Shown: positions 37,155 to 53,476 of the stretch, one piece after another
How positions within the stretch are numbered: the first letter of the stretch is position 1
Layout: each line of letters starts with the position of its first letter
Source: a virus
Lineage: Duplodnaviria; Heunggongvirae; Uroviricota; Caudoviricetes
Length of the DNA: 54,367 nt
Strand: one strand, 5' to 3'
IMG/VR virus record: IMGVR_UViG_2531839448_000005
Span: 1 to 54,367 of that record
Notes under the pieces: model-generated
The model's input: only the letters and a program-made list of their open reading frames with translations
What the model was told of the DNA's origin: nothing
Databases searched by the model: none
Translations under genes and position numbers: made by a program

Positions 37155-37419
37155 GGATGCATTTCCAGGTTTTGCTTAATATATGATTAATCTCAATGTC
37201 ATGGTGTTATTTACAACACCAGAATGATGCATCATCGGCCCCTGCCAGAAACATTGCAAATCTCTACCAATAATGCACCATTCCGGTGACGTAAAAAATG
37301 GCACTGGTGCTGCAAGCGATATCACTCCTTACAGTACAGGGCGAGGTAAGGAGTCAGGAAAAACGCCCCACATAAAATGTGTCAGTGCCTAACACAACCT
37401 AGTATCAATCGTCCTCTGC

Positions 37420-37494
<75 letters not shown>

Positions 37495-37497
37495 ATA

Positions 37498-37573
<76 letters not shown>

Positions 37574-37575
37574 AC

Positions 37576-37652
37576 TGGACCGCCACCGGGGACTCGAACC
37601 TCGCACACTCAACTTAAAGGGTTGACGCTCTTTCCTGATGAGCTAGTGGCGG
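37576..37652 (-). tRNA. tRNA-like, anticodon loop CCUUUAA (putative UUU/Lys, non-canonical C33)
   Basis: 77 nt; 7 bp acceptor stem, TTCGAGT T-loop, CCA end; one mismatch in the T stem. Confidence 0.45.
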
Positions 37653-37653
37653 C

Positions 37654-37729
37654 TGGTGGCCCTTGCTGGATTTGAACCAGCGACCTGGCGATTATGAGTC
37701 GCTCGCTCTCACCACTGAGCTAAAGGGCC
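37654..37729 (-). tRNA. tRNA-Ile2/Met (anticodon CAU), ileX/ileZ-like
   Basis: 76 nt cloverleaf, anticodon loop CUCAUAA, close to E. coli ileX as recalled. Confidence 0.8.
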
Positions 37730-41558: not shown

Positions 41559-42455
41559 TCAAAACTCAATTTTTTGCGCTGGTCTTGCATTTAATATCCA
41601 ACATTCTTGATGAGTGTGGTGCGCAATCAATAAATTTTGTAGTTGTGTTTTTTTGGCTTTATAATTTAACTCATTTGTCGTATCAATTATCCAATTCCCT
41701 GTCCCCGAAGAAGCCAGTGCCATGAGTTTATTACACTCTGCATGCATATTAATTATCTCACCAAACATATCTGTTTTTGTTTTTTTATTCACAAAGTTAG
41801 TAAAAATACCAGCATGCTTATAAGAATCCATTACAGTATAACGGCCATCACCATCTATATCAGAAGGTTTTGACATCCATTTAAAAACATGAAGGAGAAA
41901 AATATTGGCCGTCCAAGGAAATTCATCTCCATCAAGAAACGTTTCAGTAGTCGCTATACTCAGACTCTCAGTAAGATTAGTCGCCCCAATTAAAACAACC
42001 TCAGGCTCGCCATCCTTTCTTTTACCCGCCCCAACAAAATTGAACGTACCTGCATAACACTGTCCAAAATAAACAATAGCATTGTTTAAATTAGGTGCTC
42101 CTTTTAAAGCCTTGAGAAGTTGATGAGGAGTAATAGGATTTTTTGCATCCAGTCCTTGTGGGCAACCATGACCAGTAACAAACATTACTATGTTATTGTA
42201 GTTATTATCACGCAAGTCATTAAAGAAATCTGCTGATGCTTTTGACGCATAAGGATACTTCGAGGCTGATGAAAAAAAATCATCAAAATTCCTGTTAGGG
42301 CTGTCAATATATATTGATATGTCTCGTGGATTTATACCGGCCTTCTCAAGACATAGCACGCCAAAAACAATATCCAAAACGTGGCGCGATTCAACTTCTT
42401 CTTTAGAACAAGGCAAAAACATAACCCATTTCGTACGCTCAGACCTAAGGCTCAT
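41559..42455 (-). CDS. caspase-like (clan CD) peptidase-fold protein (tentative)
   Basis: beta-strand then GHG (IVMFVTGHG) and beta-strand then QC (IVYFGQCYAG) about 37 residues apart, resembling a His/Cys dyad; AT-rich gene. Confidence 0.35.
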   Translation of the reverse strand: MSLRSERTKWVMFLPCSKEEVESRHVLDIVFGVLCLEKAGINPRDISIYIDSPNRNFDDFFSSASKYPYASKASADFFNDLRDNNYNNIVMFVTGHGCPQGLDAKNPITPHQLLKALKGAPNLNNAIVYFGQCYAGTFNFVGAGKRKDGEPEVVLIGATNLTESLSIATTETFLDGDEFPWTANIFLLHVFKWMSKPSDIDGDGRYTVMDSYKHAGIFTNFVNKKTKTDMFGEIINMHAECNKLMALASSGTGNWIIDTTNELNYKAKKTQLQNLLIAHHTHQECWILNARPAQKIEF

Positions 42456-48569: not shown

Positions 48570-49130
48570 TAGCTAACCAACGAAGCTAAGGTTGGTAATT
48601 AAGGAGTTCTCCACGGGTGAGGTGGAGTGCGTGCGCCGGACACGGGTGAGCATCCGGCACTGACAGTTTACTGAAAGGATATTTCCATGAAAAGTCAGAC
48701 CATAACGCGAAAGCGCACGGCGAGGTAGCTGGTTCATAGATAGCCTGTCGTTAAATTTTCGTCGGCCGTGCGCTTCCGGTTGTGGCACTCCGCGAAATGG
48801 CGCGGCGGTAAGTATGGCGGGGTTATTCCTTCCCCGTTGAGGACACCTGGTTGTCAGGTTGACCATACGCTTAAGTGACAACCCCGCTGCAACGCCCTCT
48901 GTTATCAATTTTCTGGTGACGTTTGGCGGTATCAGTTTTACTCCGTGACTGCTCTGCCGCCCTTTTTAAAGTGAATTTTGTGATGCGGTGAATGCGGCTA
49001 AGCGCACGCGGAACAGTTAAAACCAAAAACAGTGTTATGGGTGGATTCTCTGTATCCGGCGTTAATTGTTAACTGGTTAACGTCACCTGGAGGCACCAGG
49101 CACCGCATCACAAAACTCATTGTTGAGGGC
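48570..49130 (+). other. about 560 bp structured non-coding region (several hairpins, long-range inverted repeat)
   Basis: hairpins CCAACgaagctaagGTTGG and GCCGGAcacgggtgagcaTCCGGC; 9 bp GCGCACGGC/GCCGTGCGC pair; 15 bp inverted repeat TTTTGTGATGCGGTG / CACCGCATCACAAAA. Confidence 0.3.
48930..48966 (+). terminator. candidate terminator inside the non-coding region
   Basis: GGCGG...CCGCC stem followed by CTTTTT. Confidence 0.3.
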
Positions 49131-49135
49131 GCGAT

Positions 49136-49325
49136 AATGAAAACGTTATTACCAAACGTTAATACGTCTGAAGGTTGTTTTGAAATTGGTGTCACTATCA
49201 GTAATCCTGTATTTACTGAAGATGCCATTAACAAAAGAAAACACGAACGGGAGTTATTAAATAAAGTATGCATTGTTTCAATGCTGGCCCGTTTACGTCT
49301 GATGCCAAAAGGATGTGCACAATGA
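49136..49325 (+). CDS. hypothetical protein
   Basis: 62 aa ORF. Confidence 0.35.
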
Positions 49326-49513
49326 ATCCAGTATTTGCACTTATTCTGACGGTTTTTCTTGTTTCCGGAGAGCCAGTTGATATTGCAGTCAGTGTTCACA
49401 GAACAATGCAGGAATGTATGGCAGCAGCAACCGAACAGAAAATTCCAGGCAACTGTTATCCGGTCGATAAAGTTATTCACCAGGATAATAACGAAATCCC
49501 GGCAGGTCTTTAA
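49322..49513 (+). CDS. small secreted or membrane protein
   Basis: start MNPVFALILTVFLVSG, signal-like N-terminus. Confidence 0.35.
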   Translation: MNPVFALILTVFLVSGEPVDIAVSVHRTMQECMAAATEQKIPGNCYPVDKVIHQDNNEIPAGL

Positions 49514-49606: not shown

Positions 49607-52048
49607 ATGAGCACTGATAAAGAAGAATTTGCACTATATTGCGAAGCAAAAAATGACAAAGTAAGAAAACGCCTAGGAATTAAAGGTGGTTTTTACTGGA
49701 CTACAGCAAAAAAATTATCTGTTGCAATCTCCCGCTGCATTACCGCAATGGATGACAACGATTATGATGAAGACGACTTTAAAAAACCCGTCCGCGTCAA
49801 TTTGCCCGTTGTTGACGACCTTCCGCCAGAAGGCGTGTTTGATACTGAATTCTGCAACCGCTATGAAAAAGGCGGGAAAGATGGCATCACAATGACATTT
49901 ATCGGCCCTTCCCCCTCTGTTCAGGACAAACCAGCCAGCACTGACAATACCAACATCAACGGCGAAGACATGGCTGAGATTGAGGAGAGCATGCTTCTGC
50001 CTGTCTCCGGTCAGGAACTGCCCATTCGTTGGCTTGCTCAACACGGCAGCGAAAAACCAGTAACGCACGTTTCACGCGACGAACTCCAGGCATTACACAT
50101 TGCACGGGCTGAAGAACTACCGGCTGTTACTGCCCTGGCTATTTCGCATAAAACCAGTCTGCTCGACTCGCTGGAGATTCGCGACCTCCACAAACTGGTT
50201 CGTGACACTGACAAAGTTTTCCCTAATCCTGGTAATTCAGACCTGGGACTAATAACTGCTTTTTTCGAAGCATACCTGGACGCTGACTACACTGATCGGG
50301 GTCTGCTGACAAAAGAGTGGATGAAAGGAAATCGTGTTTCACGCATCACCCGCACGGCTTCCGGTGCTAATGCTGGCGGTGGGAACAAAACCGATCGCAA
50401 TCCGAATTTAGTACACACCCTCGACACACTGGATGTGGAGATTGCAGCAGCCACACTTCCGATGGATTTTAATATTTATGAAATTCCGGGCAGCGTTTAT
50501 CGTCGCGCAAAAGAAGTAGTCCTGAACAAAGAAAGTCCGTTCAAAGAATGGTCCGCAGCACTTCGTGCAACCCCGGGTATTCTGGACTATTCCCGCGCCG
50601 CTATTTTTGCACTTATCCGAAGCGCACACCCTGAATTTTATCACTACCCGGGACGCCTTCAGGGGTATATCAACGCCTATTTGACGGAAACTGATCACGA
50701 GAACCCCAGCAAGGAAACTCTCACAGCTGCCCGGCATACGCCGGAAAAAGATATCCTGGAAGAAATTAACCGCGAGGTGGTTACTGAGCGTGAAACAGAA
50801 GAAGAAAAACCACAACCATCTGACGCAATGGCAGGTGAACAGGCAACAACTGAAACAATGGAACCGGATACAACTGAACATGGCCAAAACGCGCAGTCGC
50901 TGGATGCTCAGTCGCAGGTGAGTTCCGCTAACCAAGTAAAAGTCACCGCTGACGAAGTAAACAAAATTATGCAGGCAGCCAATATCAGCCAGCCTGACGC
51001 CGATAAGTTACTTGCTGTATCGCGTGGTGAATTTGTTGAGGGGATTAGCGACCCGAATGATCCGAAATGGATTAAGGGGATCCAGACCCGCGATTCTGTG
51101 AACCAGAACCAGCAAGAAACGGAACAGAACGACCAGAAAGCGGAACAAAACAGCCCAAATACGCAACAAAACGAGCCAGAAACGAAACAACCTGAACCAG
51201 TAGTGCAACAGGAACCGGAAAAGATCTGCACCGCCTGCGGTCAGAGCGGTGGCGGCAACTGCCCTGATTGTGGTGCGGTGATGGGTGACGCAACATACCA
51301 GGAAATATTCGATGGAGAGAATCAGCCTGAAGTTCAGGAAAATGATCCGGAGGAAATGGAAGGCACTGCGCATCAGCACAAGGAGAACCCTGGCGGCAAT
51401 CAGCATCACGCCAGCGATAATAAAACTGGCGAGGCGACAGATCCCTTAATTAAGGTGAATGGTCATCATAAGCTCACATCCACCAGCAGAGCGGGGATTC
51501 ATCTGATGATCGACCTTGAAACCATGGGAAAAAATCCCGATGCCCCGATTATCTCAATAGGCGCAATATTTTTCGATCCACAAACCGGAGATATGGGACC
51601 GGAATTTAGCAAGACCATCGATCTGGATACTGCTGGCGGAGTCATTGATCGTGACGTCATTAAATGGTGGCTAAAGCAATCACGTGAAGCGCAGTCTGCC
51701 ATTATGACCGATGAAATCCCGTTAGATGATGCACTACTGCAATTGCGGGAATTTATCGACGAAAACTCCGGTGAATTTTTTGTTCAGGTCTGGGGTAATG
51801 GGGCCAACTTCGACAACGTGATTTTACGCCGTTCATACGAACGACAGGGTATCCCCTGCCCGTGGCGCTACTGCAACGATCGCGATGTACGCACAATCGT
51901 TGAGCTGGGGAAAGCCATAGACTTCGATGCCAGAACTGCTATCCCATTCGAAGGTGAGCGCCATAATGCACTTGATGACGCTCGTTACCAGGCAAAATAC
52001 GTTTCAGCTATCTGGCAAAAACTGATCCCGAGTCAGGCTGATTTTTAA
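49607..52048 (+). CDS. RecE-like protein: exonuclease VIII N-terminal region fused to a DEDDh-type 3'-5' exonuclease domain
   Basis: N-terminal 600 aa align by eye to Rac RecE (MLLPVSGQELPIRWLAQHGSEKPVTHVSRD, CTACGQSGGGNCPDCGAVMGD); C-terminus has IDLETMG and HNALDDARYQ motifs. Confidence 0.6.
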   Translation: MSTDKEEFALYCEAKNDKVRKRLGIKGGFYWTTAKKLSVAISRCITAMDDNDYDEDDFKKPVRVNLPVVDDLPPEGVFDTEFCNRYEKGGKDGITMTFIGPSPSVQDKPASTDNTNINGEDMAEIEESMLLPVSGQELPIRWLAQHGSEKPVTHVSRDELQALHIARAEELPAVTALAISHKTSLLDSLEIRDLHKLVRDTDKVFPNPGNSDLGLITAFFEAYLDADYTDRGLLTKEWMKGNRVSRITRTASGANAGGGNKTDRNPNLVHTLDTLDVEIAAATLPMDFNIYEIPGSVYRRAKEVVLNKESPFKEWSAALRATPGILDYSRAAIFALIRSAHPEFYHYPGRLQGYINAYLTETDHENPSKETLTAARHTPEKDILEEINREVVTERETEEEKPQPSDAMAGEQATTETMEPDTTEHGQNAQSLDAQSQVSSANQVKVTADEVNKIMQAANISQPDADKLLAVSRGEFVEGISDPNDPKWIKGIQTRDSVNQNQQETEQNDQKAEQNSPNTQQNEPETKQPEPVVQQEPEKICTACGQSGGGNCPDCGAVMGDATYQEIFDGENQPEVQENDPEEMEGTAHQHKENPGGNQHHASDNKTGEATDPLIKVNGHHKLTSTSRAGIHLMIDLETMGKNPDAPIISIGAIFFDPQTGDMGPEFSKTIDLDTAGGVIDRDVIKWWLKQSREAQSAIMTDEIPLDDALLQLREFIDENSGEFFVQVWGNGANFDNVILRRSYERQGIPCPWRYCNDRDVRTIVELGKAIDFDARTAIPFEGERHNALDDARYQAKYVSAIWQKLIPSQADF

Positions 52049-52106: not shown

Positions 52107-52310
52107 ATGAGCAGCTTATTTTTAACCGAAGATGAATTGCTAATATTAACGGGCTGCAAATATGCAAGCCACCAGCGAAAATGGTTAATGGAAAACGGGC
52201 TTCCGTTCTATACCAATCGTAGTGGCAAACCGATTGTCAGCCGGGATCTATTTACCTGCAATAAAACTTTACCACCACGCGAGGTAGAGCCGAATTTTGG
52301 TGCGATCTGA
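52107..52310 (+). CDS. xis: excisionase-like protein
   Basis: 67 aa ORF immediately upstream of int. Confidence 0.5.
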   Translation: MSSLFLTEDELLILTGCKYASHQRKWLMENGLPFYTNRSGKPIVSRDLFTCNKTLPPREVEPNFGAI

Positions 52311-53334
52311 TGGGAAGACGAAGGAAAAATCCTGAACACGAAAAATTACCTCCAAATGTATACCCAAATAAATATAGTTATGTATGGAAACCAACATCCA
52401 GAGAATCTGTCACACTAACCGCCATCAAGGATGGTTTAGCTGCTTTATGGAAAAAGTATGAGGAAACTGTAAATAATCGCGATCGTGCAATGACATTCGG
52501 TCGCTTGTGGGAAAAATTCCTCGCCAGCGCCTATTACAGTGACCTTAGTCCAAGAACACAAAAAGATTATCTGCAACATCAAAAAAAGTTGCTTGCCGTA
52601 TTCGGTAAGGTACCAGCGGATTCCATAAAACCAGAACACATCCGTCGATACATGGACAAAAGAGGGGAGCAGAGTAAAACGCAAGCCAACCATGAAAAAA
52701 GCAGTATGTCCCGTGTTTACAGTTGGGGGTATGAGCGAGGGTACGTGAAGGCTAACCCATGTGCAGGTGTAAGTAAATTCAAGGCCAAAAACCGCGAACG
52801 ATATGTAACCGACAAAGAATACCAGGCAGTATTAAGCGTTGCACCTCTTCCTGTTTTTATCGCAATGGAAATTGCCTATCTGTGTGCAGCGAGGGTTTCC
52901 GATGTGTTATCGCTGAAATGGGAACAGATTGGAAACGACGGGATATTCATCCAGCAAGGGAAAACCGGAAAAAACAGATAAAAGCATGGAGTCCACGATT
53001 ACAGGCAGCGATCGAAAAAGCAAAACAGTTACCAAAATCTGCCTATGTGATCAGCAATCAATACGGCAACCGATATATGTACAAAGGCTTTAACGAAATG
53101 TGGGTAGATGCAAGAAATCGTGCTGGAAAAATTTCAGGTATTTTAACCGACTTCACCTTTCATGATCTGAAGGCGAAAGGAATTTCAGACTATGAAGGAA
53201 GCAGCCGGGATAAGCAACTTTTCTCTGGTCACAAAACCGAAGGGCAAGTGCTAATCTATGACAGGAAGGTTAAAGTTTCACCAACACTTGATGTCCCGTT
53301 ACCTGAAAATATTCCAAGAAAATATTCCAAGTAA
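52310..53334 (+). pseudogene. int: prophage tyrosine integrase, frame-broken near 52960-52980 at an A6 tract
   Basis: 223 aa ORF ends after ...QQGKTGK; 150 aa ORF continues the integrase in the -1 frame; one added A rejoins them; adjacent to tRNA-Ser. Confidence 0.8.
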
Positions 53335-53386
53335 TTCCAAGTGTGATTTTTGTCACTGACTTAATGATGTGTAAGTGATTGAATTT

Positions 53387-53476
53387 TGGCGGAGAGAGGG
53401 GGATTTGAACCCCCGGTGGAGTTGCCCCCACTCCGGTTTTCGAGACCGGTCCGTTCAGCCGCTCCGGCATCTCTCC
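53387..53476 (-). tRNA. serU: tRNA-Ser (anticodon CGA)
   Basis: 90 nt with long variable arm, anticodon loop CUCGAAA, CCA encoded. Confidence 0.85.

Follow-up and report, generated by a model that had tools for sequence, protein, structure and literature searches.

The best-described relative of the gene considered here is recE of the Rac prophage of E. coli K-12. RecE carries a PD-(D/E)XK 5′–3′ nuclease domain (at about residues 606–866; PF12684, RecE residues 615–850), and its gene, which lies ahead of the excision and integration genes in the early-left operon of this lambdoid prophage, is overlapped by recT. A second group (PHROG 2082) comprises YdfE of the Qin prophage and an intact exonuclease, 823 aa long, encoded by phages Tritos and mEp460; these occupy the locus dicF–dicB–ydfD–exonuclease–xis–int; in K-12 Qin, ydfE is a pseudogene reduced to its first 256 codons and cut by IS2. 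Two further points of reference are exonucleases of the DEDDh class. T4 DexA (PDB 8KEL/8KEN) has a stand-alone E. coli homologue, EcD (HREX), reported to confer protection from T4 and to break down the genome of this phage but not unmodified dsDNA (PMC12153337). Rv2179c of Mycobacterium tuberculosis, founder of family PF16473, is a stand-alone exoribonuclease according to the Pfam family description. For a protein in which RecE-type sequence and a DEDDh domain are fused, the literature that we searched yielded no enzymology or genetics.

A gene for such a protein lies at 49607–52048 (+ strand) of the window, by which we mean the whole 54,367-nt stretch of DNA analyzed here. It was taken from the ORF list and encodes an 813-aa mosaic exonuclease, annotated simply as 'exonuclease' in RefSeq (WP_000102137.1). 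Upstream, on the same strand, are the DicF sRNA (48911–48962; Rfam, 76.7 bits), dicB (49137–49325; Pfam DicB) and a ydfD-like gene (49322–49513; Pfam DUF1482), an order that agrees with the dicF–dicB–ydfD–ydfE arrangement of K-12 Qin and places our gene where ydfE stands. Downstream, also on the + strand, come a gene in excisionase position for a 67-aa DUF4224 protein (52107–52310; PF13986, E = 2e-15) and a tyrosine integrase gene (52310–53360) with which the operon and the prophage end. The integrase is frameshifted (it is so labeled in RefSeq, and Pfam Phage_integrase matches both fragments), and an intact allele of 341 aa is found in L007. A small ORF and then an integrase follow the exonuclease in nearly all of the 80 viral loci that we inspected. 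The position within the early-left operon, upstream of excision and integration genes, is the same as in Rac: the exonuclease gene fills the slot of recET, and the DUF4224 gene (52107–52310) the position of recT. The whole would represent a Qin/mEp460-like lambdoid E. coli prophage, inserted at a tRNA-Ser beside mtfA, with the gene as its intact early-left-operon exonuclease. A scan for promoters and terminators around the gene returned no more sites than in shuffled sequence, so gene order is the only basis on which we infer that the early-left promoter, upon induction or infection, drives co-transcription of the gene with DicF, dicB and ydfD.

The protein appears to be assembled from three exchangeable modules, namely a RecE-type N-terminus (N1), a middle region shared with RecE (M) and a DexA/Rv2179c-type DEDDh module (C). 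Module N1 (residues 1–265; 49607–50401, +) contains a match to PF06630 Exonuc_VIII at residues 57–189 (49775–50173; model positions 48–203, E = 1e-35; Rac RecE gives E = 6e-98). Module M (residues 266–615; 50402–51451, +) is common to Rac RecE and the YdfE/Tritos-type proteins, and was delimited by BLASTP to RecE, with which the homology extends up to RecE residue 591. Over both modules, residues 58–615 are 58% identical to residues 50–591 of K-12 Rac RecE (BLASTP). The earlier note had described the N-terminal part as following Rac RecE closely. Its RecE-like nature is borne out by PF06630, NCBIfam and BLASTP, but the closeness holds only for a part, because this portion of the protein is itself a mosaic: the likeness reaches 90–95% at residues 121–240 (and across 49945–50398 the nucleotide sequence shares 92% identity with Rac recE), whereas it falls to 22–37% at residues 1–120 and 281–400, the first 57 residues and the 281–400 stretch being those that set the protein apart from RecE. 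The NCBIfam model for exodeoxyribonuclease VIII (NF007259) aligns residues 1–616 to model positions 1–603 of 877 only, with a score (933.4 bits) below the 1269-bit equivalog cutoff. An AlphaFold2 (AF2) model of residues 1–400 had a pLDDT of 82, and a fold search with it against the PDB gave no match.

Module M contains three recognizable elements, all on the + strand. One is the GISDPNDPKW motif (51041–51070), homologous to that of Rac RecE. The other two are a Q/E-rich tract (residues 499–538; 51101–51220; about 44% Q plus E) and a Cys4 motif, CTACGQSGGGNCPDCG (residues 541–556; 51227–51274), whose counterpart in Rac RecE is CNACGQTGGDNCPDCG; both had been pointed out in the earlier note and are indeed present. 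The Cys4 motif may bind zinc, as the motif itself suggests, although the match of Pfam DZR was not significant (E = 0.12). The GISDPxDPKW motif is conserved widely, whereas the Cys4 motif is confined to a subset near E. coli.

The homology to RecE ends where the PD-(D/E)XK domain of RecE begins, at window position 51450 in the DNA and at residue 615 in the protein alignment. The junction, DPLIKVNGHH (residues 612–621; 51440–51469, +), joins the last RecE-homologous residues (RecE 591) to an N-terminal extension of the DEDDh module, and stand-alone homologues of 239 aa also have the GHH motif ahead of the domain. Module C proper (residues 632–803; 51500–52015, +) matches PF16473 (Rv2179c-like) from model position 2 to 177 of 177, with E = 3.2e-66 and a score of 222.8 bits, well above the Pfam gathering score of 27. 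The DEDDh layout is complete, with a D-x-E in Exo I (D636 and E638; 51512–51520), an aspartate in Exo II (D736; 51812–51814) and H-x4-D in Exo III (H786, 51962–51964; D791, 51977–51979), all on the + strand; these residues align with D7, E9, D119, H186 and D191 of T4 DexA and are invariant in 14–22 homologues. In the AF2 model of the domain (block-mean pLDDT about 77–96) the predicted fold is DnaQ-like. Foldseek ranked T4 DexA first (8KEN/8KEL, E = 3e-11), followed by the DnaQ domain, RNase T, Orn and Cap18, and a sequence search of the PDB retrieved DexA as the sole hit (E = 3e-5).

A domain scan for the canonical RecE nuclease domain, proposed in the earlier note, gave no match to PF12684 in the 813-aa protein at E values up to 1, while Rac RecE was positive. 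Likewise, RecE residues 592–866 showed no similarity to the protein by BLASTP or to the window by tblastn. Judging from profile and modeled fold, then, the C-terminal domain is a DEDDh exonuclease instead of a PD-(D/E)XK enzyme, as the earlier note had proposed (the note assigned it a third of the protein, but it makes up the final quarter), and module C would take the place of the 5′–3′ nuclease of RecE. The polarity of the protein is accordingly predicted from sequence to be opposite to that of RecE. RefSeq and phage records often say 'exodeoxyribonuclease VIII' for such proteins, and one could imagine a canonical RecE 5′–3′ exonuclease with a nuclease domain too divergent to be recognized and a RecT encoded elsewhere. 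The domain and fold results refute this reading, to which we give essentially no credence: PF12684 is unmatched, unlike in Rac RecE, the C-terminus matches another fold family with all the DEDDh residues in place, the NCBIfam cutoff for exodeoxyribonuclease VIII is not reached, and RecT is absent from the window and from about 165 related loci.

The lack of a recT partner, also claimed in the earlier note, held up: tblastn found no RecT anywhere in the window, and what lies downstream is the DUF4224 ORF and the integrase. The search for an annealase relied on RecT sequences, Pfam, PHROGs and RefSeq annotation. No annealase gene emerged from scans of the hypothetical early-region ORFs with PHROGs (ten) and Pfam (six), RefSeq annotates none elsewhere in the prophage, and no gene for a single-strand annealing protein (RecT, Red-beta, Erf, Rad52-like, Sak4) adjoins the exonuclease gene as in a two-component system. 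The small uncharacterized ORFs of the prophage might conceivably include a novel annealase. A 298-aa ORF at 41559–42455 (– strand) was considered for this role and set aside; nothing supports it as an annealase, since neither Pfam nor PHROG nor PADLOC models matched it.

Across the family, the type of nuclease tracks the presence of recT. In the PD-(D/E)XK forms examined, recT came directly after every one; recT lay under the match in rows spread over the 1730 genomes with a Rac-type domain, and RecT directly followed each of four divergent PD-(D/E)XK forms. In contrast, no recT was found near the DEDDh form in the window, in three phages, in 80 viral and 80 species-representative loci (both sets searched with five RecT queries) or in three divergent loci; the Tritos/YdfE type lacks it too. 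The PD-(D/E)XK domain and recT travel as one cassette in this protein family. The phage lineage to which our prophage belongs would carry a DEDDh module in place of that cassette and would therefore do without the annealase. Many database records name the DEDDh protein 'exodeoxyribonuclease VIII' or RecE. Prophages with the DEDDh form should not be counted as RecET systems, because the predicted polarity is opposite, the fold is different and there is no RecT.

Other combinations of modules are also found. P0241 joins a Rac-type N1 to a DEDDh domain, and P0245 the N1 type of the window protein to a PD-(D/E)XK domain; a third N1, the YdfE type, is present in Tritos and K-12 ydfE. PHROG 2082 matches residues 427–813 of the window protein, residues ~270–813 are 67% identical to Tritos residues 245–822, and the DEDDh domain is 92–100% identical to that of the Tritos/YdfE type. 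The difference lies in the first 245–270 residues, which in Tritos, mEp460 and YdfE form an unrelated N1 module with no PF06630 match; window residues 1–240 are 10–20% identical to it and do not qualify as a YdfE-type N1. In agreement, K-12 YdfE matched Tritos at 99% in BLASTP and did not match the window protein.

The gene is by no means rare. It has 100% identical matches in five complete E. coli genomes, with the same ORF annotated in RefSeq, and its 813-aa product is identical to P0121, which occurs on 213 contigs. Matches spanning 80% or more of its length occur in 1265 of 5426 complete E. coli genomes. The DEDDh C-terminal domain is present in 4041 of these genomes, at 8089 places in all and in up to seven copies per genome, and the Rac-type nuclease domain in 1730, so within E. 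coli the DEDDh architecture outnumbers the other form and is no oddity. The gene is also found in the sequenced phages Tritos, mEp460 and vB_EcoS-640R1, and the family is plentiful in Enterobacteriaceae, E. coli included. It is, moreover, already catalogued, as RefSeq, Pfam and PHROGs annotate the architecture.

These counts bear on whether the fusion could be decaying, that is, an assembly artefact or a functionless remnant in a cryptic prophage, as might be suspected from the frameshifted integrase next door and from the IS2-truncated counterpart in K-12 Qin. The reading frame is, however, uninterrupted and identical in five independent complete genomes. Full-length forms dominate the 80 viral loci (the exonuclease has 823 aa in 49 of them and 813 aa in 8), with the gene carried by phages Tritos and mEp460, and purifying selection is strong, with a dN/dS of 0.077 for the C-terminal domain (median over 51 alleles) and of 0.17 for an N-terminal segment. 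We consequently rejected this explanation, which strikes us as highly improbable.

In our judgment, the product is most likely a metal-dependent 3′–5′ DNA exonuclease of the phage early-left operon, working with no dedicated annealase. Our data show the architecture, the intact catalytic residues with their predicted fold, the purifying selection and the absence of recT both here and in relatives. The enzyme would act on DNA 3′ ends in a metal-dependent manner, presumably in the DNA metabolism of the phage, either by processing ends during recombination, repair or replication or by degrading DNA, with no partner annealase. The slot that the gene shares with recET of Rac, and the SSB and annealase genes found next to stand-alone homologues, speak for such a DNA-related role. 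A simple pro-recombination role is not obvious, since a 3′–5′ exonuclease would strip the 3′ tails that recombinases use. Modules N1 and M could serve as a non-catalytic scaffold or targeting part, which is a guess, because the fold search brought up no structural analogue for the first 400 residues.

Within the DEDDh class, the domain shares catalytic residues and, in the AF2 model, its fold with T4 DexA. The sequence identity is ~26% to DexA, and 59–90% to stand-alone enterobacterial prophage proteins of ~185 aa. DexA-specific loops are absent, and, in contrast to DexA and EcD, ~615 residues of RecE-type sequence precede the domain in the same polypeptide. In DexA, W152 and D169 have been tied to 5hmC recognition, and the tetramer residue D90 is replaced by Ala in EcD (PMC12153337). 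According to a MAFFT alignment, the equivalents of W152 and D169 in our domain are C and A (a weak negative, as the loop alignment is uncertain), while the equivalent of D90 is kept as Asp, unlike in EcD, within a PLDDAL segment aligned in this way by both phmmer and MAFFT. The 5hmC-specific behavior of EcD is therefore not transferable to the window protein.

This comparison matters for the idea that the protein is an anti-phage defence nuclease of the prophage, in which the DEDDh domain degrades incoming modified (e.g., 5hmC) phage DNA as EcD does and the RecE-type region is auxiliary. DicB has been reported to confer resistance to some phages, and dicB is an operon neighbor of our gene. The similarity to DexA in sequence and predicted fold, the prevalence of the domain in E. 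coli, with as many as seven copies in a genome, and the activity of the stand-alone EcD against T4 (PMC12153337) all fit this possibility, which we nevertheless regard as unlikely. Besides the replaced 5hmC residues and the retained D90, whose reading depends on an uncertain loop alignment, the early-left operon is not a typical moron position and, from the lambdoid gene layout, would be expected to be repressed in the lysogen; the PADLOC match, too, was weak and to a generic DEDDh model (E = 1e-4).

The substrate might also be RNA, as PF16473 is named after the M. tuberculosis 3′–5′ exoribonuclease Rv2179c and is matched by our domain over the full length of the model. An enzyme of this kind would trim RNA 3′ ends like Rv2179c or like the ISG20-like TONDO exonucleases of mobile elements, which block RNA phages, and its targets could be host or phage transcripts, small RNAs or the genomes of RNA phages. 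RefSeq calls many members of the family '3′-5′ exoribonuclease', and the similarity in fold extends to RNase T and oligoribonuclease. In addition, TONDO-type DEDDh proteins may offer a precedent: prophage and plasmid DEDDh exonucleases with auxiliary domains defend against MS2 and Q-beta (PMC13344964, a 2026 preprint). Still, the nearest solved relative in both sequence and fold is a DNA exonuclease, T4 DexA, and no Rv2179c structure was among the top 50 Foldseek hits; Rv2179c is a stand-alone protein, whereas ours has several modules. The domain, furthermore, takes the place of a DNA nuclease in a protein whose scaffold comes from DNA recombination. Genes for stand-alone homologues adjoin SSB and annealase genes, being often located just downstream of SSB (7 cases), Sak4-like AAA_24 (5), ERF (2) or Rad52-like (1) genes in a tally of 107 upstream ORFs at 54 loci. 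We thus find a dedicated exoribonuclease distinctly unlikely.

A broader and rather speculative extension of the DNA exonuclease reading, which we hold only tentatively, is that the RecE-type N1/M region is a platform for either nuclease, recruiting it to one shared target (DNA ends, for example, or a host factor), and that the DEDDh form is a distinct, annealase-free activity. That activity could consist in trimming 3′ ends so that host pathways take over phage recombination, or in a nuclease that excludes competing phages. That some 600 residues of RecE are common to a protein with an unrelated nuclease, and are under purifying selection, argues for a role of this region independent of 5′–3′ resection and RecT. 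If the platform reading were true, the DEDDh form would stand beside RecET as an alternative and would not be a degenerate version of it, and, because the nuclease type is linked with recT and the DEDDh form prevails in E. coli, this phage group would resort to the textbook RecET pair only in a minority of cases. Biologically the point is a modest one; RecE and the DEDDh protein make a natural chimera pair for probing the shared region.

As for EcD itself, its accession (HAK9828821.1) was not among the cluster members of the stand-alone homologues. A P0111-like protein, if counted from the MIDLET start, would have an Ala at position 78 and a Trp at the position of DexA W152, which would correspond to what has been described for EcD (PMC12153337).

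The ORF lies exactly where the earlier note placed it, at 49607–52048 (+), and its 813-aa product showed two significant Pfam domains: Exonuc_VIII (PF06630, residues 57–189, E = 1e-35) and, covering the whole model, the Rv2179c-like 3'-5' exonuclease (PF16473, residues 632–803, E = 3.2e-66). In the same kind of scan, RecE of the K-12 Rac prophage (recE and recT were taken from NC_000913) gave PF06630 and the PD-(D/E)XK-like PF12684 (residues 615–850), and RecT gave PF03837. By BLASTP, residues 58–615 of the window protein were 58% identical to RecE 50–591, with no similarity past these points. DNA homology to recE ended at 51450, that is, at codon 615 here and codon 591 of recE, just 5' of the RecE nuclease domain; the crystallised RecE fragment begins near residue 606. 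A review places the nuclease domain at residues 564–866 and describes the N-terminal domain as having no known function (PMC11611040).

The earlier note had described the front part as following Rac RecE closely. A RecE-like N-terminal part is indeed present, but the resemblance is a mosaic: it is close at residues 121–240 (90–95% identity, 92% for the DNA) and not at residues 1–120 and 281–400 (22–37%). The Q/E-rich tract and the Cys motif (CTACGQSGGGNCPDCG) that had also been reported occupy residues 499–538 and 541–556, respectively. An AlphaFold-type model of residues 1–400 was locally confident (pLDDT 82, pTM 0.38) and had no structural analogue in the PDB.

The proposal that a DEDDh exonuclease occupies the RecE nuclease position was borne out both by the PF16473 match and by the predicted structure. 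Alignment with stand-alone homologues and T4 DexA equated D636, E638, D736, H786 and D791 with DexA D7, E9, D119, H186 and D191, and these residues were invariant throughout. In an AlphaFold2 model of residues 597–813 (mean pLDDT 79, first 32 residues disordered), the best PDB fold match was T4 DexA (8KEN/8KEL, Foldseek E = 3e-11), followed by the DnaQ domain, RNase T, oligoribonuclease and Cap18; DexA was also the only PDB match by sequence. Neither fold nor sequence comparison revealed any trace of a PD-(D/E)XK fold in this domain, and these domain and fold results contradict a reading of the protein as a canonical RecE.

The absence of a recT partner was likewise upheld. With RecT as the query, tblastn gave no match across the 54 kb of the window. 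RefSeq annotates no annealase in the entire prophage (RusA does appear), and none emerged from PHROGs on ten hypothetical early-region ORFs or from Pfam on six of those. The protein departs from RecE in three defining respects: nuclease domain, recT partner and NCBIfam equivalog score (residues 1–616 align to model positions 1–603 of 877 at 933 bits, below the 1269-bit cutoff). The label exodeoxyribonuclease VIII should not be applied to it. Its membership of PF16473 is full.

Both this very protein and its architecture have been catalogued before and are very common. An identical protein, named 'exonuclease' or '3'-5' exoribonuclease', occurs on 213 contigs of a public collection with the precomputed architecture PF06630 + PF16473, and PHROGs 607, 2082 and 20376 cover it. 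Among 5426 complete E. coli genomes, 1265 carry the gene at ≥80% coverage, 4041 the DEDDh domain (up to seven copies per genome) and 1730 the Rac-type PD-(D/E)XK domain. Compared with 51 distinct viral-contig alleles, the DEDDh domain had a median dN/dS of 0.077; the value for the segment nearly identical to recE was 0.17, indicating purifying selection on both parts. Prevalence and selection contradict an artefact or a pseudogene. Nothing in the searched literature dealt with the function of the fused protein or described a link between nuclease type and recT. The chief value lies in a corrected annotation and in a naturally occurring chimera with which the 600 unexplained residues of RecE can be probed.

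The slot of this exonuclease in K-12 Qin is filled by the ydfE pseudogene (L096:6079–6999), cut by IS2, which represents the first 256 codons of an 823-aa exonuclease of the Tritos/mEp460 type; K-12 YdfE agrees with residues 1–256 of the Tritos protein (L006:4641–7112) at 99% identity. This sister of the window protein differs in its N-terminus, which is unrelated to that of the window protein and to RecE and had no match in the Pfam library used, whereas from about residue 270 on the two are 67% identical, and both are RecE-like up to RecE residue 591. Judging from these sequences, the family is composed of three exchangeable modules: N1 (RecE-type or YdfE-type), a common middle region M, and C (DEDDh or PD-(D/E)XK). 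Searching 1.84 billion representative proteins turned up 11,359 relatives; Pfam scans of 20 of them showed both C types behind RecE-type N-termini at 30–50% identity. Reciprocal chimeras occur as well: P0241 joins a Rac-type N1 to DEDDh, and in P0245 an N1 of the window type (83% identity over residues 1–260) precedes PD-(D/E)XK. The Cys4 motif is confined to a subset close to E. coli, and GISDPxDPKW is conserved widely.

Nuclease type went together with the downstream gene. Four divergent PD-(D/E)XK forms (P0245, P0262, P0266, P0293) each had a RecT gene 6–15 nt downstream, and recT underlies the match for Rac-type matches in E. coli. Three divergent DEDDh forms (P0250, P0253, P0261) were followed by an integrase, in one case after a small DUF4224 ORF. 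At 80 IMG/VR loci, where most exonucleases had 823 aa (49 loci) or 813 aa (8), no RecT match was found; at nearly all, a small xis-type ORF began 53–73 nt after the exonuclease and preceded an integrase, with four kinds of small ORF and four integrase sizes (341, 372, 376 and 431 aa). In a sample of 80 loci, one genome per species, five RecT queries found nothing within 5 kb at any locus. Fused forms (21 loci, 685–831 aa) were all Enterobacteriaceae-labelled except for one Veillonella-labelled metagenome bin; the other 59 were ≤260 aa, mostly about 180–235 aa, and such stand-alone forms extend to Vibrionaceae, Aeromonas, Pseudoalteromonas and Pseudomonas. On the simplest reading, recT travels with the PD-(D/E)XK domain as one cassette whose boundary is at RecE residue 591; this fits Rac, where the stop codon of recE overlaps the start codon of recT.

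The DEDDh active site and fold are intact and conserved, the gene closes the early-left operon, and a partner annealase is absent; the window protein would act on DNA as a metal-dependent 3'-5' exonuclease. A DNA substrate and a role in DNA metabolism are favoured because the nearest characterised relative of the domain, T4 DexA, degrades DNA as an exonuclease in the scavenging of host DNA and in intron homing (PMC12153337), because the domain stands in for a DNA nuclease on a RecE scaffold, and because stand-alone homologues often adjoin SSB and annealase-type genes. Among 107 upstream ORFs at 54 loci, the genes often found just 5' of such homologues encoded SSB (7), Sak4-like AAA_24 (5), ERF (2) and Rad52-like (1) proteins. 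At loci L111–L176, stand-alone DexA-like exonucleases of ~185 aa likewise close an operon, followed by a small xis-like ORF and then an integrase; several of them lie directly 3' of SSB, Sak4-like (AAA_24), ERF or Rad52-like genes, which suggests a recurring recombination module with a 3'-5' exonuclease. The substrate may instead be RNA, on the model of Rv2179c or of TONDO, the ISG20-like exonucleases of mobile elements (PMC13344964). A defence nuclease like HREX/EcD, the anti-T4 DexA homologue of E. coli, is possible too; against it, C and A stand where DexA has W152 and D169 (D90 is kept), and the gene lies outside a moron position.

The source of the window is E. coli; strain 14EC029 and four further complete genomes carry the exonuclease gene at 100% identity. 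RefSeq gives the 14EC029 order as cI-like repressor, DUF1391, ydfB, ydfC, (DicF), dicB, DUF1482 (ydfD-like), exonuclease, DUF4224, frameshifted integrase, tRNA-Ser and mtfA; in sequenced phages (vB_EcoS-640R1, mEp460, Tritos) the order is always dicB-ydfD-exonuclease-xis-int. Directly upstream of the exonuclease, the dic operon (48911–49513, +) is intact, with DicF sRNA (48911–48962, +; Rfam 76.7 bits), dicB (49137–49325, +) and the ydfD-like DUF1482 gene (49322–49513, +), an undamaged counterpart of K-12 Qin dicF-dicB-ydfD-ydfE. A frameshift divides the integrase gene (52310–53360, +) between ORFs 52310–52981 and 52882–53334, so the prophage is probably unable to excise; an intact 341-aa allele is present in IMG/VR locus L007.

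The prophage spans ~41 kb (about 12250–53480), attached at tRNA-Ser (53390–53476, −) adjoining mtfA; its head and packaging module is of HK97 type and includes an HNH endonuclease and a small terminase subunit of the P27 family. Near hokD, a 298-aa ORF (41559–42455, −) lies in a stretch of low GC content (about 39–44%) and matched nothing in Pfam, PHROGs or PADLOC; it may be a moron or an unclassified defence gene. Four tRNA genes (Ile, Lys, Thr, Gly; about 37419–37728, −) lie just downstream of the antiterminator Q gene, according to the RefSeq annotation of the matching 14EC029 region. The left 12 kb of the window are chromosomal (yodB, zinT, msrPQ, hprRS, hchA); copies of IS600 and IS30 are present there, as is a porin pseudogene.
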